Below are positions 4,047-55,198 of a stretch of DNA of 64,000 bases, one piece after another. This DNA is from Vairimorpha necatrix (Eukaryota), in NCBI GenBank assembly GCA_036630325.1, contig CP142735.1, positions 558,001 through 622,000 of the forward strand, in the 5' to 3' direction. The translations under genes were made by a program, and so were the position numbers. Position 1 is the stretch's first letter. Every line of letters starts with the position of its first letter. The notes under the pieces were generated by a model. It made no database searches, was not told the DNA's origin, and saw only the letters and a program-made list of their open reading frames with translations.

Positions 4047-5204
4047 ATGTTTGAATTAATTTTTAGTAGAAAATATCTTAAAAGAAAAATCATTCTAATA
4101 ACTCCAGTTGTTACTGTTCTTGTTCATTTTTATTGGACCAAAAAGCATGCGAGTAAACCTATATATTCGTATGTCGAGACACCAAGCATAACTTATAGCC
4201 AAACGCCTTGGACATGGAATCCCACGCCAAAACACGAAAGTCTGCCTCTTCAAAGCAATAAATGCGATAAATCCCAAATCAGACTTAACACATCTGATTT
4301 TTGGCCTTTTGTTGAATATCATAGAAAAAGAAGCAGGAAGGTCTATGTTCCCCAAATTTCAGAAGAACATAAGCAGTTTATGATAAATGAATACGCTCGT
4401 ATACGAAAAAATATGATGCCTAAAATACACAATGTCAACAAGGAGGCCGTATCTTGGTTGGAGAAAGGCAAAAGGGTCCTGGATAACATTTCTAGAGCAA
4501 TATGGGGTTTTAGGGGAATTAATTATTGCAAAAAATGTATTTTGACATGTTTTGATGTTCCTAAACGGATGTTTATAAAAGCTGCAAATTTCGCCTCTTA
4601 TATCGGAAGCCCCTTTTATAAAGGGGCAAATGTAGTTGTAAATTTAGCATACAAGGCCCTTCCAATTGCAAAAGAATGTTATGATTACATGAAGATAGTT
4701 GGAGAAAATTGCTATAATAATGTGATAAAAATATCATCAATTGTTACGGATGTAGTTTCTAGTGGGGTAATTGCCAGTACAAAAACAATAAAAAACGGAT
4801 CTTCAATAATTGCCAACATTGCCATTGGCTTGACTAGAAAAGGAGTTAATAGCTTACAAATTATAAACGTAGCAATTTGCAATGGCTTTGTTTTTTTATA
4901 TGAACAAATTACAAATTGGGATACAAGGGGTACTTTACAAAATCTAAGAAGAGGAGTATTTTATGCGTTTGAAAAACCAATTAATTTGTTCATAAGAGCA
5001 CTTGGTTTTAGTAATAATCAAATAACAACAATTGAAGATATACAATCTGAAGTAATTCTTAATGGTAGCAATAATCAGAACAATCAACTCAGTAGTGCCT
5101 ACAATTTTGAGTCAGAAACTCAAAATACACCATTCAGTCTCAGGAGGGCTATGTGGAATTGTCTTTATAATTGTTATAGCTATATTTATAGTTATTTCGG
5201 GTAA
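4047..5204 (+). CDS. Hypothetical protein (385 aa) with a short N-terminal hydrophobic segment
   Basis: Long ORF in very AT-rich DNA, with CCCCTT directly before the ATG. No domain recognised. Confidence 0.8.
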   Translation: MFELIFSRKYLKRKIILITPVVTVLVHFYWTKKHASKPIYSYVETPSITYSQTPWTWNPTPKHESLPLQSNKCDKSQIRLNTSDFWPFVEYHRKRSRKVYVPQISEEHKQFMINEYARIRKNMMPKIHNVNKEAVSWLEKGKRVLDNISRAIWGFRGINYCKKCILTCFDVPKRMFIKAANFASYIGSPFYKGANVVVNLAYKALPIAKECYDYMKIVGENCYNNVIKISSIVTDVVSSGVIASTKTIKNGSSIIANIAIGLTRKGVNSLQIINVAICNGFVFLYEQITNWDTRGTLQNLRRGVFYAFEKPINLFIRALGFSNNQITTIEDIQSEVILNGSNNQNNQLSSAYNFESETQNTPFSLRRAMWNCLYNCYSYIYSYFG

Positions 5205-13131: not shown

Positions 13132-13337
13132 AAACACCAATTAAACAATTTCTTTACGGAAAATGCTTTTTAATACTTTAATATAAATCAATATTCCGTA
13201 TGTTTTACGATTCGTTCTATTAATAATTATTTAACAGTTAATATACCAGACCATGTTTCAATATCAATAAAATATCTAGTTATGAAATATAACAATTTTT
13301 TAATAAGTCAAATAGAATGTGTTATTGAAATTACTAA

Positions 13338-13563
13338 TGTAGACTACTGGTTGCCCAGCAGTCCGAGAAGAGTTAGTTTTACTTAATGTTTTATTTAACT
13401 TCTTCATACCCTTATGGGTATGATTTTCTTTTATGTTTGTGGGAGGGAAAATAAAGTATTTCCCTCCAAAACATAATTGGAGAGAAGAAGAATAATACCT
13501 ACAGCATGGTATTCTCTGGTCTCCAGGGCAATCTTAGAACCACTGGAGATCTGTCCCTTGACA
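13338..13563 (-). repeat. 3' LTR (226 bp) of Ty3/gypsy element 1
   Basis: Direct repeat of 17116-17341. Confidence 0.95.
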
Positions 13564-14619
13564 CTCCCCCTTCCTTATCGGCTCCCAAGTTTCCTTTTCA
13601 AAATCCATTTTTTTTAAATCTTTCTGATTCACCGAGAAAACAACATTATTTGGACTAGTTATTTCATACGCACCCCTTTTTCCTATCTTAGTTATAGTGT
13701 AAAGTCCTTCAAATTTACTGTCCAGTTTATTTTTTATATTGATTGGAGGTTTTCTCCTCAGTACTATATCCCCTACTTTAAAAGCCTGTTCTTTCACATT
13801 TCCTATTTCTCTTTCCCGTGCTTCTCTCTCTGCTTGAAGCATTATTTCTCGAGTTTGGTTTAATCTTTCAAATATCAATAGATTAGGTTCCATGGGTACT
13901 ATCTCTTGGTTAGTCTGATCCCATTCTTGTGGCTTACGTCCATACAATAATTCAAATGGGGAAAATCCCGTTTTCTTCCTTGGAGAAATACGATAAGCAT
14001 ATAGTGCTAGTTCTAAATATTCGTCCCATTCTTTCCATCTTTCATTAGTTATTTTGGCCAGTTTAGCTACCAGCGATTGATTGGTTCTTTCAACTGTACC
14101 ATTACATTGAGGATGGTAAGACGAAGTAAAAGATTTTCGCACATGAAAAATTCTACATAATTCTTTTACTGTAGAGTTCAAAAATTCGAGTCCCCTATCT
14201 GAAAGTAGTTCGTTCGGTGGACCATGTCTGCATATGATCTCTTCAAAAATAAATTTGGCTACTGTTTTGGCTGTTTTATTCTTCACGGCCTTAGCTTCAC
14301 ACCATCTAGTTATGTAATCGGTAGCTACAATTATATAAATCTTTCCATTTTCTGACTTAGGCAATGGGCCTACTATGTCGATACCAACTAGAGAAAATGG
14401 TTCTTTCAGTTGAATCCTATGATACTCTTTGGGTATTCTTTTAAGATTAAATTTCAGACATACTTGGCAATTTTCTATTTCTTTTCTTATATCTGCGTAA
14501 ATACCTTTCCATTGCGCTTTCTGGAGGATTAGCGTGTATGTTGGAAATATACTCCCATGCCCACATTCTTCGTGACACTTTAGAATAAGTTCTTTTTTTT
14601 TCTGAAACGGATAGTTCAT
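13534..14619 (-). CDS. Integrase portion of Pol (HHCC zinc finger, DDE core, GPY/F-like tail), separated from RT-RH by a frameshift in an A9 run
   Basis: CHEECGH...CQVC, VGIDIVGP, LSDRGLEF, NGTVERTN, KFEGLYTI. An A8 run at 14593-14601 would restore the frame (SEKKELILKCH). Confidence 0.9.
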   Translation of the reverse strand: MNYPFQKKKELILKCHEECGHGSIFPTYTLILQKAQWKGIYADIRKEIENCQVCLKFNLKRIPKEYHRIQLKEPFSLVGIDIVGPLPKSENGKIYIIVATDYITRWCEAKAVKNKTAKTVAKFIFEEIICRHGPPNELLSDRGLEFLNSTVKELCRIFHVRKSFTSSYHPQCNGTVERTNQSLVAKLAKITNERWKEWDEYLELALYAYRISPRKKTGFSPFELLYGRKPQEWDQTNQEIVPMEPNLLIFERLNQTREIMLQAEREAREREIGNVKEQAFKVGDIVLRRKPPINIKNKLDSKFEGLYTITKIGKRGAYEITSPNNVVFSVNQKDLKKMDFEKETWEPIRKGECQGTDLQWF

Positions 14620-17185
14620 CAGCCTGGTCCTTATTTACTGTATGGACAAATCTGGTTAATCCATCTGCAATAACATTATCTTTTCCTTTAATATACTCAA
14701 TTTCGTAAGAGTAATTTTCCAAAGTTAGAATCCATCTCATTAATCTCCCTGTACTCTCTTTAAAACTCAGTAGCCATTTAAGCGCTTGGTGATCTGTACG
14801 GATTATAAATGTATTGGTAAGATATATTCTGAATTGTGTTATGCTCCATATTATAGCAAGACACTCTTTTTCGGTTACTGTATAGTTGATTTCTGCCGTA
14901 TTTAATTTCCTTGATATAAAATATACTGGCATTTCTATTCCCTCGTATTCCTGCATTAGTGTTGCTCCTATGTATAAATTAGATGCATCTGTATATAAAA
15001 TAAACTTTCTGTTAAAATCTGGTAGTTTAAGGACTGGAGAGCTCGTGATAATCTCTTTTATTTTGATTACACTTTGTTTAGCACTTTCAGAAAACTCAAA
15101 TTTTCCTTTTTTCAAGCATTCATAAATCGGGGCCATTATATCTGTGTAGTTTTTTATAAATTTCCTAAAGTAATTAATAAATCCGATAAAAGCCCTAGTT
15201 TCTTTGAGAGTTTTCGGAACTTTAAGTCGTAAACATTTGGTTTGTTGTTCTAATGGTATGCTTATTCCATCTTTGTTTATCATATAACCTAAGAATTTTA
15301 CTGAATTTTTAGCAATCTTGCATTTTTTTTGATTGACTTTCAGTTTTAATTTGTCTAATCTTTTAAACACTGCTTCCGTGTGTTCTAGATGTTCTTTAAC
15401 CGATCTTGAATATATCATTATATCATCTAAGTATACTTGTACAAATTTATGTAAATGAGGAGATAGTATTGAATTCATTATCTTTTGAAAAGTAAAGGGC
15501 GCATTTACAAGCCCGAATGGCATCCTAACCCACTGAAAAGCCCCTGATCTGCTTCTAAAAGCTGTAAGATATCTATCTTTTTGTCGGATTCTTATTTGAT
15601 GATATCCCGATTCTAAATCTAATACAGTGAATATAGACGCTCCTTGTAGCTCTTCAATAGTTTCTTCTATAAGAGGTATTGGGTAAATCATTTTCTTAGT
15701 GATTTTGTTCAGTCTCCTATAACCAATGCAAAATCTTAGGTCGCCGTCTGGTTTCTTGACTAATACAACTGGGGATGTATAATCTGAATCGCTGCTTTCG
15801 ATAACTCCTTTCTTCAAAAACTCCTGAACTTTTTCTTCTATGATCATATTTTGGTCCGGAGACCTTCTATATTGAATATTTTTTATTTCAGAGACGTCAT
15901 TTGTTATTTCTATAGCATGTTCAATGTCTAGACTTGATTGTTGATCTCCATTTAAAAAAATTTCTGAATACTCCGTAATAAGTTTATTGAACTTTTCTTT
16001 TTCAACTTGTAGTAATGTTTCATCTCCGACATCAGTTATAAGTGTTTCATTATTACCTGACGTTGTTGTACATACTGATTTCGTTATAACGGCGCTTTCC
16101 ATTTTATCAAGCATCTTTAACAAGTTTAGTGAAACGGCATCTCCAATACCTATAATGAGGTCTTCTGGCAAGTTCTCAACTACATAAGCCTCCACTCTGT
16201 TGCTCTTCTTGTTTTTAGGTTTTTTAATCATGAATTCCACCTTTTTTTCTGATCTTACACTTCCTCCTACTCCTTCAATGTTTAGACTGACATTTGTTGT
16301 TTCTAGGCCCAGGCGTTGGATAGTGTTTTTACTAATCAGGTTAATTTGGGCACCTGTGTCGATTAGTGCGGAAATAATTTCTTTTTCGGAATATAGTTTA
16401 ATTCTTGGTCGCATGTCTTTAGTTTTCGATTTATCCACTCTTCCTACCTTCAGGAGTAATGCAGTATTTCCTTCTTCTGCCTTCTTTGTAAAAGTTTTAA
16501 TCACTTTCTTTTTCTGCAAGGGTGCTTCGTTACGTGGAATTTTGGGCCACTTGGTTTTCTTTTTTAGATAATTATTCATAAAAGTTTCCTTTTCTTCTAC
16601 CAGATCTAATAACTCTATCCAGTCCTTGGTGTCCAATATAGATTCCTTCAACGTATCTGGGGAGTTTCTTCCTATCGCAATCTTTAATCGGTTAAAGTAT
16701 TCAGTGCTTTTCTTTGCACAACTCTTGAGGTCGTAAGCGTAACTCATGATATCGCTTTCCTTTGGACCTTGTACGTACAAGTGCATAAACTTATCAGTTA
16801 CATCTTCAAGTAGTTTTTCTTTTATGTATTTCTTATGAAATTGGAATTTGAATGTATCGAAATCTGTTATCTCCTCACCTTCGAAGGCCTTATACCATCG
16901 CAACGCTTTTCCTTTTAGTTTGGACTTTACGATATCCAGCGTCTTGGCTTGTTCATAGATATCTTCTACTTCTCTAAACTGGGAGAGAAAGTCTTCGGCT
17001 TTACTTAGATCTTCGCCGGTAAATTCTGTCCATCTGTTTTGTAGACTCAGTTTTTTCACATAGGAACAGATTTCATCGATTTCATCTTTCATATCCTCTT
17101 CACCGTTACCACCATTGTGGACTACTGGTTGCCCAGCAGTCCGAGAAGAGTTAGTTTTACTTAATGTTTTATTTAACTTCTTCAT
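14447..17185 (-). CDS. Gag-protease-RT-RNase H polyprotein
   Basis: ALIDTGA (aspartic protease), RMPFGLVNAP, YLDD (RT), LYTDAS...EKECLAI...TDHQAL (RNase H). The ATG lies inside the 5' LTR. Confidence 0.93.
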   Translation of the reverse strand: MKKLNKTLSKTNSSRTAGQPVVHNGGNGEEDMKDEIDEICSYVKKLSLQNRWTEFTGEDLSKAEDFLSQFREVEDIYEQAKTLDIVKSKLKGKALRWYKAFEGEEITDFDTFKFQFHKKYIKEKLLEDVTDKFMHLYVQGPKESDIMSYAYDLKSCAKKSTEYFNRLKIAIGRNSPDTLKESILDTKDWIELLDLVEEKETFMNNYLKKKTKWPKIPRNEAPLQKKKVIKTFTKKAEEGNTALLLKVGRVDKSKTKDMRPRIKLYSEKEIISALIDTGAQINLISKNTIQRLGLETTNVSLNIEGVGGSVRSEKKVEFMIKKPKNKKSNRVEAYVVENLPEDLIIGIGDAVSLNLLKMLDKMESAVITKSVCTTTSGNNETLITDVGDETLLQVEKEKFNKLITEYSEIFLNGDQQSSLDIEHAIEITNDVSEIKNIQYRRSPDQNMIIEEKVQEFLKKGVIESSDSDYTSPVVLVKKPDGDLRFCIGYRRLNKITKKMIYPIPLIEETIEELQGASIFTVLDLESGYHQIRIRQKDRYLTAFRSRSGAFQWVRMPFGLVNAPFTFQKIMNSILSPHLHKFVQVYLDDIMIYSRSVKEHLEHTEAVFKRLDKLKLKVNQKKCKIAKNSVKFLGYMINKDGISIPLEQQTKCLRLKVPKTLKETRAFIGFINYFRKFIKNYTDIMAPIYECLKKGKFEFSESAKQSVIKIKEIITSSPVLKLPDFNRKFILYTDASNLYIGATLMQEYEGIEMPVYFISRKLNTAEINYTVTEKECLAIIWSITQFRIYLTNTFIIRTDHQALKWLLSFKESTGRLMRWILTLENYSYEIEYIKGKDNVIADGLTRFVHTVNKDQADELSVSEKKRTYSKVSRRMWAWEYISNIHANPPESAMERYLRRYKKRNRKLPSMSEI
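17102..17115 (-). promoter_or_regulatory. Primer-binding site of element 1, possibly tRNA-Leu
   Basis: TGGTGGTAACGGTG lies 1 nt after the 5' LTR. Its complement CACCGTTACCACCA resembles eukaryotic tRNA-Leu 3' ends (CACCGCTGCCACCA). Confidence 0.65.
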
Positions 17186-17341
17186 ACCCTTATGGGTATG
17201 ATTTTCTTTTATGTTTGTGGGAGGGTAAATAAAGTATTTCCCTCCAAAACATAATTGGAGAGAAGAAGAATAATACCTACAGCATGGTATTCTCTGGTCT
17301 CCAGGGCAATCTTAGAACCACTGGAGATCTGTCCCTTGACA
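17116..17341 (-). repeat. 5' LTR (226 bp) of Ty3/gypsy element 1
   Basis: Direct repeat of 13338-13563, followed by the PBS. Confidence 0.95.
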
Positions 17342-19072
17342 ACTAACACTGTAGATAAATCATATAATGTTGTTTCTAGCATGTTTTACATTTTATAACA
17401 CTTGAAATACTTAAACTATATTATCATGCTAAATAATTCTTGATTTACTGCAATATGTCTCTTGGAATATTTGATATACCATATAACACTATGCTTTTTG
17501 GTAGAAATGACTGAATTGAACCAAAGTGAGTTAATTACTTATTACAAAATCATATTTTTAAGATATATGTATTAAGAAGTTTATACATAAAACTTGCATT
17601 AGTCCATATATATATAAGAGGCTCTAAAAGCCGTAAATTTTCTATATAAGCCACAAGAGAGGAAGATCTTAAGATCATTCTGGACTTTTCTGATAATTAG
17701 TAAATAAAACAATAAATTACATGAGATTTTAATTTTTTTTATTCTATTCAAAATACGCAGATAGATACTCAAGACTGCAAACAAAAAATATTTAAGGAGG
17801 TCTTTATAGTGTGTATTTCACATGCAAGGTTCAGTTAATTTTATCCTCGATGTACTTTAAAATTTTGAAAGTTGTTATTTTCAGGACAACTACGACGAAT
17901 ATAGCTATGAATACACAAAAAACCAGGTCCCGATTTGCAGGACATTGTAGTATTTTTATATGTGCGCCAATAAAGAGTATTTTTACACAATACATTGACC
18001 CAGATTAACTCCCAATCTTCTTATTATATATGATGAAAATGGAAAAAAGATATCATTTTTCTTTGCCGATGTGCAGCAATATTTATTGAATATATGCCTT
18101 TAGTTATCAATAAGAATTATTTTGAATTTTTCATTATGATTTGAAGATTTTGTTTTCTAATTGAGTACAATGGGGTGTTCTCTTTCAATGTCATCAAACT
18201 CATATTCACTATTTTTAGTTTTGATATTAAATTGAATAAATATCATACAAAGACTAAATTTTGCCAAGGAAATATCATAGATAAACACAATTTTGTGATC
18301 GACCATAATAATTCACTCTTTTAGGTAATAATAAATAGTTTTATATGGTTTTTTATATTCTGCCATGTCTTTTAATATTGAAATTTCAGAAGTAAGGTAA
18401 AAAATTAATCGTGGTACGAGAATGATTTTTTTGCAAAAAGTATGCGTAGAAAGGATTTATATGCCCTATTGAAGTTTAGCACTAAAGATACAAACGTATT
18501 TTAATGAGCTAAATATCATCATTAAAATAAATTTAATATCTCTAATGTGTTGACGTAAGATTTTTTTGTACAATATGATTTTTACACGGGCATTTTATCA
18601 TTTCATCTATAAACTTCTTGGAGAATTTTTAATACTTTCACTGATGATAAGAATATAATTATTTTTCATAATATTTTATAAATGCCGAAAAATATTGCAA
18701 TGAAAAGTGTTTGAAAATCATAATATAATATTGTATATTATGTTGTTGTCTAAATTTATTTTGTAACATCTTTTAAATGTTTATCATCTCAAATATTTTA
18801 TACTTATATACTTTGCTATAATAAAATCTATTTGTTTTAATCTGAAATTTCTTTGTAATTTTTTTACATAAAATAATCAAGACATAACACTTATTCGATC
18901 ATATTACACGAATAGTTAAGTAATTTATATTGAAGACCAATTTAATAGACTAAACCGTTTTCGTAACTCAAATTGACTTTAATTAATTTTGTCCTTATCA
19001 AAAGACTTTTATTATAAGCTTGAAACATTAATAATAATTTAACCATAATATATTGTATATTTCAAAGTAGCT

Positions 19073-46721: not shown

Positions 46722-48543
46722 TATCTAAATTAGATAATTTGGGAAACAAATTACTATTAAATCAGCCTATCAAATTTATGCATTAGTTGTATATGTACAT
46801 TTATTATTACCCATGCAGTAATGCACTCTCTTTAAGACCGACATTTGACTGCTTAGAGTTTTAGTTTAGAAAATTTTAGTGATAATGTCATATTGTAGTT
46901 TTAGGGTTATGACCTACTTTAGATTGCTTTCTTGTGTAATTTTTCTATAGAATACATTACGGCTACATATATTATATAAGCTGGGGATTCTTTTGTGATA
47001 TCGTGACAGTGGCGTCGAAATTAGAAAATGATGAAAGTTAAAGGCTTTTGCGAACAAATAAAAATTATAAACATTTGTTTTAACAAAAGTTATCTTATGC
47101 TGTATAAGTCTATTCCCAAGGCCCAATGATTTTTAACAGTCTATCTAGGATTGGGCAAAGTTATGTTTAAAGTTTTACAATTTTATCGAGAAAAATTAAT
47201 CAGTAAATGGTGGAATTAATTTACTGATTCATTTTGTAGAACTTGAAACATAGAAATTTAATCTTCCAAATGTCATAATACCACGCACATCAATCAGATT
47301 TGTGAATGTTGAAAATAAAAATGAGTTTTTGATGAAAATGTTTCTTTAGCTTAAATAAAAAAATAAAATCTATAATTGTACAAAGTAATAACTATTTGTC
47401 AATATATTCATGTACAATTTAAAATTATTAAATTAATGATAGTCCAATAAAAATATAAAATTTTAATTATCAACATCTTTCCGTACTCCTCTAATTCTGC
47501 AAAGTCATATAATCTACTTTTAAAATCGTTTTTAATGGTATGTTTTCTGTACTGTTTGAATACGGAAAAAAGAACTAACTATAAAAAAGAGAAGCGAAAA
47601 CAATACCTATAATGAATATAAACCAAATACATGATCTACTATAAGTATTTAAATATTTTTAAAACTATCAGTAATAATCGAGATGGGAGTTGTGAAAGTA
47701 GTAGGAGGGTTGCTAAAAAAGATTTTAGACCAGTATCTTTTCAATAAAACTCTATCTTTTTAGTTGTTTCCTTAGGAATGACACTTCAGGATCTATATGT
47801 TTGAAATAATAACAATCGTTGGTTCATTCATTACATACTATATTGATAATTATGTTTTAGTTAAGTAAGATAATGTTCTAGTTCTTTGTCGTCAAAACAT
47901 TCTTGTATGTTTGAAACATATCCTTCACATCCCTTATAATATACATAAGGTTAATTTTTAATACTATAGATTAAAACATAAGTTTTCATTTGGTATTTTT
48001 TTAGATTCTTTTTTTGTGAAAGATCTAATTAAAAAATCTTAAAAAACAAATTTTTAACCTTATAATATGAGCTGTTTTGCCGCTAATAAATGAGTAAAAA
48101 CAAAATCTCAGCTTTTTAAAGAATCTGAAACAATGTTAATTACACCTTTACCATAATTAATAATTGGGCCTTTTCGATAATCATTTCTTGAATCTTCATT
48201 TTTTCATAGAAGAAATTTGTTAGATTATCACTTTTCAAAACGTCTTTAGAGTTTGTATTACTAACCAGGTATCACAAATTACATTCCCATATCAAAAAAA
48301 GTAGTGTTTTCTGATTTAATTTCTGTTTATATAAATTAAATAGAAAGCTGTTATTCTCGCGTTATTTATAAGAATCATATTTATTTAATTTAGGTTAAAA
48401 TTAGTAGCTTGTTATTCAACAATCAATATTAATAATGTTATAGACTGTAGGGTTTAGAACCCTTAATAAATAAATGGTTAACATGGCGAACACAAGGATG
48501 AACAGGGAAACAAGAGAGTCCCGTAGTCAAGAGGCTAGAACAT

Positions 48544-50201
48544 TAGAGACTTTATTCCCAACTATGCGTATAGAACAGTAAGGCTTACTGAGGCTTTAAA
48601 GAAAGATGTTAAGTGGAATTGGACGGAGGATATGGAAAGAGCTTTTGAGGATATGAAGCAAGGCTTGAGAGATATGAAAAAGTTGAAGATTCCGGACGGA
48701 AAAAAGCTATTTAGAGTAAGAACTGATGCGTGTGATACGGGGATCGAGAGCAATTCTATTACAAGAAAATAAAGAGGGTGAGTGGATTCCGATACAATGG
48801 GCATCGAAAATGTTGACTCCTATCGAGCGAAGATATACGATAAGTGAGAAGGAGATGTTGGCGGTGTTTTTTGGAATAAAGAAGTTTGAAAGTGATTTGA
48901 GAGGAAGGAAATTTCATTTGATGACGGATCATAAAGCATTAGCAGAGATCAGAAATAAGCCATACTTCAATAATAACAGAATAAACAGATGGGTAGAACA
49001 GATACAAGAGTTTGACTTTACAATAGAGTATGTGAAAGGGGAGTTGATGACAGATGCAGATGCGTTAAGCAGGCAGTATGATCAGGTAGAAGTTTCGGAT
49101 GAACAAAAAGAAAAGGACAACAAGAGAAAAGAAGTGATCGAAAAACAAATTTTGGGAAAAAAGCAGAAACATATTAAAGAAAAGTACGGTAAACAGTATT
49201 GGGAATTTTCCACAGGTGAGGTGAAAGAGATATTGAGCCTAGATAGTAGAGAACATGAAATAACAAGAGTACATGAGGAGTTAAACCATAGAGGTGTCAA
49301 AGGCACTTATTATAACATTAAACAAAGATGGTATTGGCCTGGTATGAAAGATCATATTAATAAGGTAATTAAGAATTGTGAAATATGTGGGATTAACAAT
49401 AGGAAAAACACAGGAGGATGTGATTTCGTAGTAACTAGAAAGAAATTGGAGAAAGTGGCGTTGGATTTAATGGACATAGGTGGAGAGAATAGGTATGTGT
49501 TACTGGGTATTGATTACTTTACTAGAAGGTTGTGGGGTTCGAATTTGAGATGTAAAGAGAGTAGTGAAGTTATAGAGGTATTACAAAAGTGGATAAGGGA
49601 AGATGGATTTCCAGAGGAATATGTGACAGACAACGGAAAAGAGTTTGTAAGTAATAGATTTAAAGAATGGTGTAGTATTAATGATATTAAACATAGGAAA
49701 GTGGGCTTAGAAGCTCATAGGAGTAATGTTAGAATCGAGAGATGCATCAGAACTATAAGAGAGACATTGATAAAGCAAAATGATGGGAATATTTCTGAAA
49801 AGATAGAAAGAGCAATCAAAGGATATAATAATACACTACATACAGCAATAAAATGTACGCCGATGGAAGCGTGGAGAGATCAAACTGCTGAAGTTATAAT
49901 TGAAAATGATGAAAATGGAAAATATGCTGGTCGGTTCAAGAGAAGACACAGAGAGACATTTACAGTAGGCCAAGAGGTAAGAATCGCTAGGAGAGAAAAT
50001 TTAGGTATACGTGCGAAAACAGACAAGGGAAGATTCACGGGTCGCGGAAGGATCGTAGCTATAAGTGAAAATGATTCATATATTGTGAGACTACTGGATG
50101 GTAAAATTGTTAAAAAGAGGCATTATAATTTGAAAGAGATAAGGAAGAGTTGTTTAGAAGATGGAGAGACTACCCGTCTGGAGGGGGGATGTAGGGTTTA
50201 G
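48544..50201 (+). pseudogene. Remnant pol: RT thumb/tether, RNase H and integrase
   Basis: RDFIPNYA..WNWTEDMERAF..VRTDACDTGI, frameshift near 48745, then EKEMLAV, TDHKAL, HEELNH..CEIC, ALDLMD, VTDNGKEF, IERCIRT. The stop codon lies inside the 3' LTR. Confidence 0.9.
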
Positions 50202-50214
50202 AACCCTTAATAAA

Positions 50215-52032
50215 TGTCAAGCGCCCAGGGCGCACGTGCGCCCAGCCCGCACAAAAACGAAGTTTTTGCCGGGTTCGAGCGCAGTGAGAACAATTTTTTT
50301 TTTCCGAAGGAAAATTAAGGAATAAAAAATAATAGATTTGTTTTACTTTAAAAAGATAATTAAATTGTTTAGATTTACAGAAGTTTTTTATTGCATGGGA
50401 ATATTTTTGATATTGGAATCTTTTTAAACTCAAGATAATATGTTGGGTTCGGGAATCCTTATAAGTAAAAGTACTGACAAAATATATAAACTAATTTTTT
50501 ATTTTTTTAATCAAATTTAAATCTACTATAACTTCATTTCCTTCTAAATTTAACTTTACTCGATTGTTAGATAAAATTTCTATTACTATAGACTCTTTAT
50601 GATAGAAAGATTCAAGTTTTTTTTTCTTAGTTTTTTTATTATTATCAAAATCTTTTTTCAATAAAATAGTATCACTTACTTCAAAATCATAAATAGAATT
50701 GTGTACCGCGCGTCTATCCATTCGTGCAAAGTATTTTTTTTGGTAACTCGAAAATACACAGTCTTCTTTAGATTTTTCTTCCTTTTTAACACAATCGATT
50801 TCATTATCAACAGACACAGGACATATTTCTCTATCTAACTCTAAAGACACTTTATTCTCAGGTTCTAAATTTTTACGAACTACTGTGTTGTAACCAGCTC
50901 TGTTAAACATTTTCTCAAATGGAGTAAAAGAAGTCGCAGAATGAACTGCTTGATTATAAACACTAGTAACCTTTTTTAGACAATCAATCCACCTTTCACT
51001 TCGTTCTGATGTTTCTTCGTCCATTAATTTTTTTGATAATAACCTTGTGATTGTTTGGTTAAACCGTTCCACCTGACCCTGTGTCTGTGGATGTCTAGGT
51101 CTCCCGTTTATTAGAAGGATTTTATATTTTGATGCAAGATCATACATCAATTTGTTCCTAAACTCCTTACCATTATCACTTTGAATGATCCCAGGTACAC
51201 CATAATGTTCAAATAAATCCTCCAAACACTCTATAACACACTCAGCTGTCTTACCTTTTAATGGATATGTTCTGGCAAATTTTGAATATACATCCAAAAT
51301 AGATAATATCCAGCAATACCCATCGTTAAACTCCTTGTATGATCTCATATCAATAAGATCTATCATTAGGCGTTCCCATGGAAATTCTGCTGTAATATGT
51401 TTCATTTTTTCCTTTGTCTTCAAAGGCTGACATTGAGCGCAAATTTTACATTCACGTACAACATCACGTATCAATTCCCTTGGGATTGAAAAATATAAAC
51501 ATTTACTTTTTAGGTATAGGGCATTCTGACCTAAATGCCCATCTACGTGAAGTTTTTGCATTTCTAACTTCATCGCACAAATATCCGTTTGTGCAAAAAC
51601 CTTTAAATGTAGATTGTCGATACCTCTTAAGTAAAGATGATTATCTACAATTGTAAAGTGTTCAGCCTTTTTCCTTAATCTCGCCAAAGAAAACCTCGAA
51701 ATATCTTTTACGACTTTGTTTTCTACAATAATATCTAGAATATTTTTATATTCTTCCGAGTTTTTCACAGGTAAGACCATTTGAGGGATGTTATGAAATA
51801 TTTTTTAAAATGGTGTTGTTTTTAACTTATTTATATTTTTAAGGTTTTTTTATAACTGAGTTTAGCTCAGCGGTCAGAAATTCTGAATCGAACTGGTCAA
51901 ATTTAAGAGGAAGAATTCGATCCCCGCGCGAGCCATTTTTCATAAGCACCCTTAAAAAAATGAAAAATGGCTCAAAAAGCGGGAATTGGGCCGTGTGCGG
52001 GCTGGGCGCACGTGCGCCCCGCGCGCGCGACA
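50215..52032 (-). mobile_element. Ginger (Ginger2/TDD-like) DNA transposon encoding a gypsy-like integrase
   Basis: TGT..ACA termini, 39-bp GC-rich TIRs (35/39 identical), 5-bp TSD ATAAA, and a single integrase ORF with no gag, RT or LTR. Confidence 0.9.
50491..51780 (-). CDS. Ginger transposase/integrase (429 aa, intact)
   Basis: HVDGH...CKIC zinc finger; MIDLIDM, IQSDNGKEF, QGQVERFNQT DDE core; CCC before the ATG. Confidence 0.92.
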   Translation of the reverse strand: MVLPVKNSEEYKNILDIIVENKVVKDISRFSLARLRKKAEHFTIVDNHLYLRGIDNLHLKVFAQTDICAMKLEMQKLHVDGHLGQNALYLKSKCLYFSIPRELIRDVVRECKICAQCQPLKTKEKMKHITAEFPWERLMIDLIDMRSYKEFNDGYCWILSILDVYSKFARTYPLKGKTAECVIECLEDLFEHYGVPGIIQSDNGKEFRNKLMYDLASKYKILLINGRPRHPQTQGQVERFNQTITRLLSKKLMDEETSERSERWIDCLKKVTSVYNQAVHSATSFTPFEKMFNRAGYNTVVRKNLEPENKVSLELDREICPVSVDNEIDCVKKEEKSKEDCVFSSYQKKYFARMDRRAVHNSIYDFEVSDTILLKKDFDNNKKTKKKKLESFYHKESIVIEILSNNRVKLNLEGNEVIVDLNLIKKIKN

Positions 52033-52413
52033 ATAAATAAATGGTTAACATAGACTATAAAATACCGTAGATTGATAAAAAGGTAAAATTTTGAATTCAT
52101 AAAAAACATCAATAATAGAATTTGTCATTATATTATCTGATATTACAACATTTTAAATTTTGATTTGTTGGTTTAATATTTTTGATGTTTTTTTTCAAAT
52201 AAATTCATGTGACATATTAATTAGTGCCCATGAAGATATAATCTGACACAAAGAATCATATGTATTAATAAGCACTTAATTCTGCTTAATTTAACATTAA
52301 AGCCATCTCTTGACTATTGTTGCAAAATTAATATCCATATTTTAACGACTAAAAAATATTGATATTTTTTAATAATATAATAAATTTTATTACAACAATT
52401 GTTACAAATAAAT

Positions 52414-54101: not shown

Positions 54102-55198
54102 GGTGCTTCTTTGGTATGCGATCGGACACCAAGACTCCCCCCTTGTAAAGGAAAAAAATATGAAAAAACGTCAAAAAATACTTAAAATTTGATTTAATTG
54201 AGTAAATTATATAATAAATCATCATAGGAGTCGTAAAACTCCTCTAAATTGTCCTCTCTACTAAACTTTTCCTAAATATAAATTCATTGAGCCATGAACC
54301 AATTTCATTACGCTTAACTCCATGTTCTTTGGTCATTTCAAATTTGGGCTGCGACCATACATTCTCAATGTTATTGGTATGAGTACCATCTGCAGATTTA
54401 ACCCCGATAGAGTGGTTTAATACCTTATGTTCAAGACAAAGATTTTGTGCTACACTTAGATAACTCTGATGACCATTTCTATGTAAAATCGAACCAACGC
54501 CTATTTTACCTTCTAGAGCAACTGTTAAACACCCGACTTTCCTATTATCCACCACTGTAATGTAAAAGTTCGTAGGATTTGATGCTTCTACTATGCCTAG
54601 TATCCAAACAGTATCAGGGATTATATCATTACAACTGGATGCATTTCTTATTTTACCTCTTCTACAAATTACAGACTCATCAACTTGGACAATTTTTCCT
54701 GGTCCACAATAATAAGCCTCTTAGACATTTTGTTTTTAAAATTTCTCTAATTCTTTTTTTTGCATCGGAAACTGTCGATTAAGAAACTCCTAGTTTTACC
54801 TCTAAGGTAAAATAACTACTCCTACACAAAATTAAAAATATTAATTCACAAAAATTATATAAAGGTAAATTGCTTCATTTGTTAATTGATTCTTTAGCAC
54901 TGCATTTATATTTAGCACCCCTGTATTTCACTCTTTTAACCTCTTTCTCCTTAAATAATACAACATTTAAAATCTCATTGCATTTAAAGCACGTCTTTTA
55001 CTCTTTCGAGACTTCTAACTCAAGTAATGAGTTTAAACAGTCGTCAATACCATAGAAAAGCCTTTGTTTTGCCTTTATTTTGATTTTCGTGCTTTTCTTT
55101 GGTATGCGATCAGAAATTTTAAAGTCATTATTTTTCATTTTTAGGGGGTCTGAATTTTTTTTTAAAAAAAAATTCTGATCGCATACCAAAGAAGCACC
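54102..55198 (-). mobile_element. Merlin/IS1595-superfamily DNA transposon with disrupted transposase
   Basis: TIR GGTGCTTCTTTGGTATGCGATC; 8-bp TSD TATTTCGT (54094-54101, 55199-55206). Motifs GPGKIVQVDESVICRR and LNHS..DGTHTNNIENVWS. ATG at 55138 after CCCCC. Confidence 0.93.

Follow-up and report, generated by a model that had tools for sequence, protein, structure and literature searches.

The 64,000-nt stretch of Vairimorpha necatrix DNA analyzed here (contig CP142735.1, positions 558,001 to 622,000 of the forward strand; hereafter, the window) contains, at 48441–52055, a defective copy of a Ty3/gypsy-type long terminal repeat (LTR) retrotransposon, whose LTRs are only 38 bp long and whose 3′ LTR a Ginger-like DNA transposon subsequently interrupted. 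The loci of related elements and contigs from public sequencing runs indicate that such LTRs are very probably native to the lineage, which carries repeats of 38–75 bp, rather than a product of deletion. A broader proposition, to which we give about even weight, is that this Nosema/Vairimorpha-type microsporidian lineage comprises the smallest self-encoded LTR retrotransposons known (~3.1 kb). These would combine LTRs of 38–39 bp, near a physical minimum set by two integrase end-sites, a core promoter box and a poly(A) signal, with a single protease-less open reading frame (ORF) that overlaps the LTR end, the primer-binding site (PBS), the polypurine tract (PPT) and the 3′ LTR; a 13-nt box may serve as an extra cis signal that compensates for a tiny R, the segment repeated at both RNA ends.

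Direct reading of the sequence, checked by script, placed the 5′ LTR at 48446–48483 on the plus strand (TGTAGGGTTTAGAACCCTTAATAAATAAATGGTTAACA, 38 nt, running TGTAG...TAACA and thus bounded by TG and CA). At the other end, removal of the insert and its ATAAA duplication joined the first 25 nt of the 3′ LTR (50190–50214, plus strand) to its last 13 nt (52038–52050, plus strand), and the resulting 38-mer was identical to the 5′ repeat (38/38). TAGAC stands at 48441–48445 and again at 52051–52055, forming a 5-bp target-site duplication (TSD). The intact 38-mer occurred once in the window and in none of 100 shuffles, and its first 17 nt occurred twice, compared to a shuffle mean of 0.01. A repeat finder independently recovered both LTR halves (26 nt at 100% and 20 nt at 100%), together with the inverted repeat of the insert. 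Directly 3′ of the 5′ LTR lies a PBS-like, TGG-initiated stretch, TGGCGAACACAAGG (48484–48497, plus strand, within the ORF), and the 3′ LTR is adjoined by a polypurine tract, GGAGGGGGGA (50180–50189, plus strand), of the kind expected of a Ty3/gypsy element. Direct TG..CA terminal repeats with a 5-bp duplication fit the Ty3/gypsy pattern, in which duplications are 4–6 bp, at a repeat length far under the canonical range. The initial annotation had proposed these repeats, the TSD, the PBS and the PPT, and had concluded that the element integrated with 38-bp LTRs; each feature was recovered, the PBS as a PBS-like TGG, and the conclusion is supported. The element arrived at this site as DNA bounded by the 38-bp repeats and duplicated 5 bp of target.

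The insert that divides the 3′ LTR, already recognized as a Ginger element with an ATAAA duplication, spans 50215–52032 (1818 bp, minus strand), has termini TGTCA..GACA and GC-rich inverted repeats of ~39 nt (50215–50253 and 51994–52032), and is flanked by ATAAA at 50210–50214 and 52033–52037. Its transposase ORF (50491–51804, minus strand) is apparently intact, with 428 aa from the first ATG, and in a domain search it matched rve (3.1e-13) and Integrase_H2C2 (7.2e-4) and no reverse transcriptase (RT). The insert qualifies as Ginger2/Tdd-like under the structural criteria that Bao et al. set out, namely ends of the form TGTNR, inverted repeats at the termini and a duplication of 5 bp. Set against the accessible text of PMC2836005, it shares with Ginger2/Tdd elements the TGTNR ends (here TGTCA), an H2C2 finger with a DDE core, an AT-rich target and the 5-bp duplication of TDD-4/5; its 5-bp ATAAA duplication differs from the 4-bp duplications of metazoan Ginger2 and from the CCGG target of Ginger1. 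Other copies of the insert, with other flanks, are present among the run contigs, with very high contig depth in run X2.

Whether the short LTR is native was judged from the loci of relatives (L001, L004, L015 and L020) and from the contigs of public runs. Protein relatives were taken as the 31 best (P0001–P0031), and the alignment counts given here and below are over 28 or 29 aligned members. The best relatives are 865–1188 aa long at 45–66% identity, and those with names come from Vairimorpha necatrix, V. apis, Enteropsectra breve, Nosema granulosis and Pancytospora; 20 of the 31 lie on contigs of just 2.7–3.3 kb, which therefore leave nearly no space outside the ORF. Full-length relatives measure ~3.1 kb and consist essentially of one ~1000-aa ORF that encodes a short N-terminal region, a CCHC knuckle, RT, RNase H and integrase. 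P0002, P0010, L015 and L020 have RVT_1, then RT_RNaseH, then Integrase_H2C2/rve, which is the Ty3/gypsy pol order; of these domains, the window copy retains RNase H, H2C2 and rve.

At L001 (66% aa identity), the element ends in ..GGAGGAGGGGA, followed by a 38-nt homologue of the LTR and then by unrelated AT-rich DNA. L004, a metagenome contig with ~53% aa identity, carries both LTRs (39 bp each, with 1 mismatch), TTATA on both sides, a PPT reading AAGGCGGGGA and an A|TGG junction, in which the start codon straddles the LTR end. Two further elements come from the same genome as L001: L015 (41% aa identity to P0001 over RT) has an intact 1095-aa ORF between perfect 58-bp TG..CA repeats, and L020 (33% aa identity to P0001 over RT) has an intact 1154-aa ORF between perfect 75-bp TG..CA repeats; the ATG of both elements has its A on the last LTR base. 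The A|TGG junction is common to the window copy, L004, L015 and L020. L002, L003 and L005, which have chimeric or truncated 5′ ends, were dropped for LTR length. Protein alignments carry traces of the same boundaries, in that 19 of 28 relatives either open with M[AG] or show [HYND]M[AGV] in their first 12 residues, as ..NACA|TGG predicts, and in 10 of 28 the frame continues across the purine tract into GG[C/M/D], corresponding to GGGGA|TGT. In every member examined, the purine tract adjoins the 3′ repeat and TGG adjoins the 5′ repeat. Siblings with long LTRs containing the 38-mer, the case that the initial annotation had named as fatal to its proposal, were not found among these relatives, whose LTRs were instead 38–39, 58 and 75 bp. 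Its suggestion of a family at or below the known size limit is likewise supported, with LTRs of 38–39 bp in the window copy, L001 and L004 compared to 76–85 bp for the shortest that we found in print.

The genome behind L001 (G001) is labelled as a Clostridium sp. metagenome-assembled genome, in which gypsy polyproteins are encoded by dozens of contigs (48 matches). Among named proteins, those of Nosema granulosis are closest to its P0001 family, and this bacterial bin therefore appears to hold eukaryotic (microsporidian-like) contigs. Viral contigs yielded distant integrases only (29–35% identity) and were not used.

Contigs from public sequencing runs mark the same LTR boundary. Five of them (three in run X1 and two in run X2) diverge upstream exactly before 48446, one 774-nt contig joins another upstream flank to the LTR and PBS, and a contig of run X2 begins at 48455. 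If the Logan word length is 31, the start at 48455 fits the branch point of a 38-bp repeat. The element is covered by contigs from four separate studies, which depart from the window at a few positions at most. Contig depth in run X1 was 65 for the element and 3.2 for the flank, a difference that is compatible with many copies, contig depth not being copy number. A low-depth flank contig of run X1 (48300–48446) has 1 mismatch and 5 gap letters relative to the window and ends 6 letters past 48446 in sequence unlike the LTR; the insertion may be absent from this site in the run X1 organism, the overhang being too short to tell. No run contig bridges a possible empty insertion site.

Without the insert, the window element is 1782 bp long, and the coding content of its 1706-bp interior, spread over two frames, is limited to the end of RT, RNase H, the integrase zinc finger and the integrase core. 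The RT end and the start of RNase H are in frame 1 (48539–48772, plus strand; RT_RNaseH_2, E 9.8e-8), and RNase H, the H2C2 finger and the integrase core are in frame 2 (48720–50201, plus strand), the frame shifting near 48747. The A of the start codon is the last base of the 5′ LTR (A|TG), and the first 22 codons (48483–48549, plus strand) read MANTRMNRETRESRSQEARTLE; the full-length relatives P0002 and P0003 begin MANTR. After MANTRMNRETRESRSQEARTLE, homology skips to residue 473 of the 1002-aa P0002, with residues 473–538 resuming at 48548, and ~1.3 kb is therefore absent, which would have encoded the remainder of the N-terminal region along with the zinc knuckle and the bulk of RT. A 1411-nt contig of run X1 matches the window up to 48549 and then diverges, and a loose contig end in run X3 enters the window at 48543; because these contigs mark the junction at 48549 and 48543, we place the deletion in a 7-nt microhomology, TTAGAGA (48543–48549, plus strand). 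Contigs of runs X1, X2 and X3 show a 1-nt length difference at 48747, where the window frame shifts. The window copy is a dead, non-autonomous derivative with an internal deletion and a frameshift.

The reading frame of this family extends over all of its cis elements: the ATG sits on the LTR/PBS junction, the PBS supplies codons 1–5, the PPT is coding, and the stop codon of the long ORF (TAG, 50199–50201) falls in the 3′ LTR, within its first 12 nt. The internal deletion, the frameshift, this coding overlap with the LTRs, PBS and PPT, and the family's undetectable protease had not been remarked on in the initial annotation.

The gag and protease components of a Ty3/gypsy element are the part of the pattern that we did not recover, in that the region is deleted in the window copy and an aspartic-protease family was matched in 0 of 29 aligned relatives. 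RT is conserved in 28 of these 29 and RNase H in all 29, and the CCHC knuckle was matched in 13 of 29. A D[ST]G motif between the knuckle and RT occurs in just 2 of 28 and is not conserved, and only ~45 residues separate the knuckle from the first RT block in P0002. The N-terminal 272 aa of P0002 gave a best score of 0.80 in the ESM Atlas, to gag/protease clusters, which we treat as a lead only. A protease is present in the 75-bp-LTR relative L020 and in a second Ty3/gypsy element of the window. A gypsy lineage without a protease would be unusual in itself.

That second element, at 13333–17346 on the minus strand, is conventional and provides an internal contrast. It has 226-bp LTRs (98% identical) and a TTAGT duplication; TGGTGGTAACGG begins one base past its 5′ LTR, and gag, protease, RT and RNase H share one ORF, overlapped by a second frame that encodes integrase. 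This integrase shows just 22% identity to that of the 38-bp-LTR element.

Alignment of the short LTRs revealed three invariant segments, namely TGT.G at the 5′ end, an A/T-rich block with ATAAA (TAAATAAAT in the window copy) and ACA at the 3′ end. A CCC box, (A/G)CCC, is present in all aligned LTRs and reads AACCCTTAA in the window copy, L004 and L015. It occupies positions 13–21 of the window 5′ LTR, where two overlapping AATAAA motifs cover positions 20–29; in L004 and L015, AATAAA is upstream of the CCC box, and the partition into U3, R and U5 (the unique 3′, repeated and unique 5′ segments) may therefore differ between families. Host genes of the window carry a similar signal: in 5 of 11 host ORFs, CCCC lies within the 13 nt that precede the first ATG, and the ATGs at 4047, 25355, 27769, 37453 and 41666 are preceded, at 2–8 nt, by a T run and then CCCC(C)TT, the microsporidian CCC motif. 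A CCC(C) motif upstream of genes is described for N. ceranae and E. cuniculi in the accessible text of PMC2685015.

The initial annotation had suggested that very compact microsporidian promoters and UTRs make such LTRs possible, which may be so, given a CCC box in the LTR like that of host genes. These signals suggest how 38 nt could suffice. The LTR would hold two integrase-recognition ends, TGTAG and TAACA, and between them a putative core promoter box, AACCCTTAA, which resembles the host CCCC motif, together with AATAAA. U3 would comprise approximately positions 1–17 (the integrase end and the CCC box), transcription would start directly 3′ of the CCC box, around positions 18–25, and polyadenylation would take place at or past the LTR end, so that the ~20 nt after U3, AATAAA among them, would act as R, with U5 nearly or wholly merged into it. 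Under this scheme, ~15–20 nt would be left as R(+U5) at both RNA ends, which may be sufficient for the first strand transfer. An R of that size seems feasible because an R of 10–11 nt functions in mouse mammary tumor virus (MMTV; 11 nt) and the plant element Sire (~10 nt), as given in the accessible part of PMC3601003.

A further candidate signal is a 13-nt box, AGACT(A)CC(C)GTCT, which lies 2–5 nt 5′ of the purine tract at 50167–50179 in the window (plus strand; AGACTACCCGTCT), 2700–2712 in L001, 3642–3652 in L004 (as a variant) and 3197–3209 in L005; equivalents of the window PPT itself are present in the same three relatives. The AGACTACCCGTCT box is kept across families of ~50% protein identity and, because it is translated in different frames among relatives (the C-termini read ETTRL, ETPS and MRLPS), it appears to act as a nucleotide signal. 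The idea that the box circularizes the RNA by pairing directly with the 5′ leader was dropped, because in none of four elements did the leader pair with the 40 nt upstream of the 3′ LTR better than shuffles did (z +0.65 to +2.05). Tf1-like self-priming was also set aside, with no LTR stretch complementary to the PBS beyond CCTT detected by eye.

Several points weigh against a native, working 38-bp LTR as we describe it. Among the relatives and run contigs, no near-identical full-length sibling with both LTRs was readable as sequence, and no run contig bridges the Ginger insert, so that the 3′ LTR of this exact family was not directly seen in uninterrupted form. The ends of L015 and L020 lack a matching 5-bp duplication. 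The CCC box lies 18–34 nt before the ATG in the LTRs compared to 2–8 nt in host genes, and the U3/R/U5 partition of a 38-bp LTR is wholly conjectural. With respect to the primer, the 64-kb window contains no tRNA gene, and a search of G001 with the L015 primer-partner pattern returned only the element itself and four one-mismatch sites, with no tRNA genes nearby. In addition, a repeat of 38 bp is a poor clock for dating the insertion, and a defective copy proves nothing about autonomy.

Autonomy is the subject of the alternative that survives best, although we consider it unlikely: the short-LTR insertions would be real but not self-sufficient, relying on AT-rich, promoter-like flanking DNA or on read-through for transcription and receiving protease, and perhaps capsid, in trans from a conventional family. 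This model would account for the lack of a protease match in all 29 aligned members, and it gains from the presence in the same window of a conventional gag-protease-RT-RNase H-integrase element with 226-bp LTRs (13338–17341), from the mere ~17 nt of LTR that lie upstream of any plausible start site, and from the AT-rich DNA in which both insertions with a TSD (the window copy and L004) reside. However, dozens of relatives have intact ~1000-aa ORFs that encode their own RT, RNase H and integrase, and conservation of the AACCC(T)TAA box and AATAAA within the LTRs of families that are 41–66% identical in protein points to signals inside the LTR. Moreover, in the established model of reverse transcription, strong-stop DNA copied from a transcript initiated upstream of the LTR could not pair with the 3′ LTR.

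Far less probable is the possibility that the 38-mers are stumps of longer LTRs, truncated in the window copy or its immediate parent, in a family whose LTRs normally measure at least 100 bp. The 226-bp LTRs of the other gypsy family in the window and the far larger U3 and U5 of the reference Metaviridae description (PMC7879559) speak for it. Both repeats, however, would need to have been cut to the same 38 nt, with TG and CA retained, directly against a perfect 5-bp duplication; short LTRs are also found in the independent lineages L004 (39 bp, with a TSD), L001, L015 and L020, and the branch points of run X1 and X2 contigs, at 48446 and ~48455, are those that a 38-bp repeat predicts.

An equally remote alternative holds that the element moves as DNA, with its integrase acting as a cut-and-paste transposase on the TG..CA ends and the LTRs serving as mere recognition sites. 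Ginger elements, which derive from gypsy integrases and share TGTNR termini and 4–5-bp duplications (accessible text of PMC2836005), provide a precedent, and one of them sits inside the window element itself. The terminal repeats are nevertheless direct rather than inverted, the purine tract and TGG flank the interior of every member examined, RT and RNase H are conserved almost throughout (28 of 29 and 29 of 29), and the internal deletion lies at a 7-nt microhomology, as template switching would yield. Least probable of all is an assembly collapse or chimera that made the short repeats, for although repeats misassemble easily, the contigs of four studies cover the element with few differences and break at the expected branch points, and the same architecture is found in unrelated assemblies.

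Native short LTRs are thus the reading that we carry forward, and the window element is an extreme miniaturization of the Ty3/gypsy type that keeps the order of the pol domains, the terminal repeats with their duplication and the purine tract but lacks gag and protease. Like Ty3 of Saccharomyces, the lineage has the RT-RNase H-integrase order, TG..CA repeats, a 5-bp duplication, a putative TGG-initiated primer site, a purine tract, and an H2C2 finger with a DDE core. The ICTV profile of Metaviridae describes non-coding LTRs with a U3 of 200–1200 nt and a U5 of 75–250 nt around an internal region of at least 3 kb (PMC7879559). Compared to these canonical elements, the window lineage has a whole LTR of 38 bp, an ORF that runs from the last LTR base into the 3′ LTR, a full length of ~3.1 kb and a protease in 0 of 29 members. 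Ty3/gypsy elements have been described from the same phylum (Nosema bombycis Nbr, Xu et al., 2006; Anncaliia and others, Parisot et al., 2014), and the accessible part of PMC13174016, citing Parisot, gives the microsporidian polyprotein as a single ORF. In the accessible portions of the literature searched, we found no microsporidian LTR length (PMC4202319, PMC2387174, PMC3614468, PMC2685015) and no LTR below 76 bp; Xu et al., 2006, or the supplement of Parisot et al. may list sizes, and a prior description is possible.

Very short LTRs have precedents outside the microsporidia. The LTR of the Bombyx element Mag is 77 bp. The shortest that we found in print, in the accessible text of PMC3281118, belong to the grass SMART element FRetro129 (85 bp) and the copia-type FRetro64 (76 and 90 bp), which resemble the window element in their TGT..ACA termini, their 5-bp duplication and the presence of very short LTRs in elements that have evidently transposed. 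They differ in that FRetro129 is non-coding and 292 bp long, FRetro64 is a 5.2-kb copia element, and their LTRs are twice as long, with no coding sequence extending into them (PMC3281118, same text). MMTV and Sire indicate that a redundancy of ~10 nt suffices, as a 38-bp LTR demands, but their U3 and U5 are of ordinary size according to the accessible part of PMC3601003.

If our reading is correct, the lower bound for a working LTR would be roughly halved from the 76–85 bp of the shortest in print, and these elements would offer a minimal system from nature in which to ask what smallest number of nucleotides can hold a promoter, an R, a poly(A) signal and both integrase ends. They also show that the start codon of an LTR element can sit on the LTR/PBS junction and the stop codon in the 3′ LTR. 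The minimum LTR length that LTR finders are given is usually 100 bp; such elements would therefore be missed or annotated as mere 'pol' genes, biasing estimates of repeat content and activity in microsporidia.

Two other features of the window were noted. The window is microsporidian, and the phosphofructokinase that it encodes shares 60% identity with the Vairimorpha bombi enzyme and 53% with the Nosema granulosis enzyme. An ORF fragment at 54244–54720 on the minus strand matches an IS1595/ISXO2-like DDE transposase (Merlin-type), a group that is common in microsporidia.

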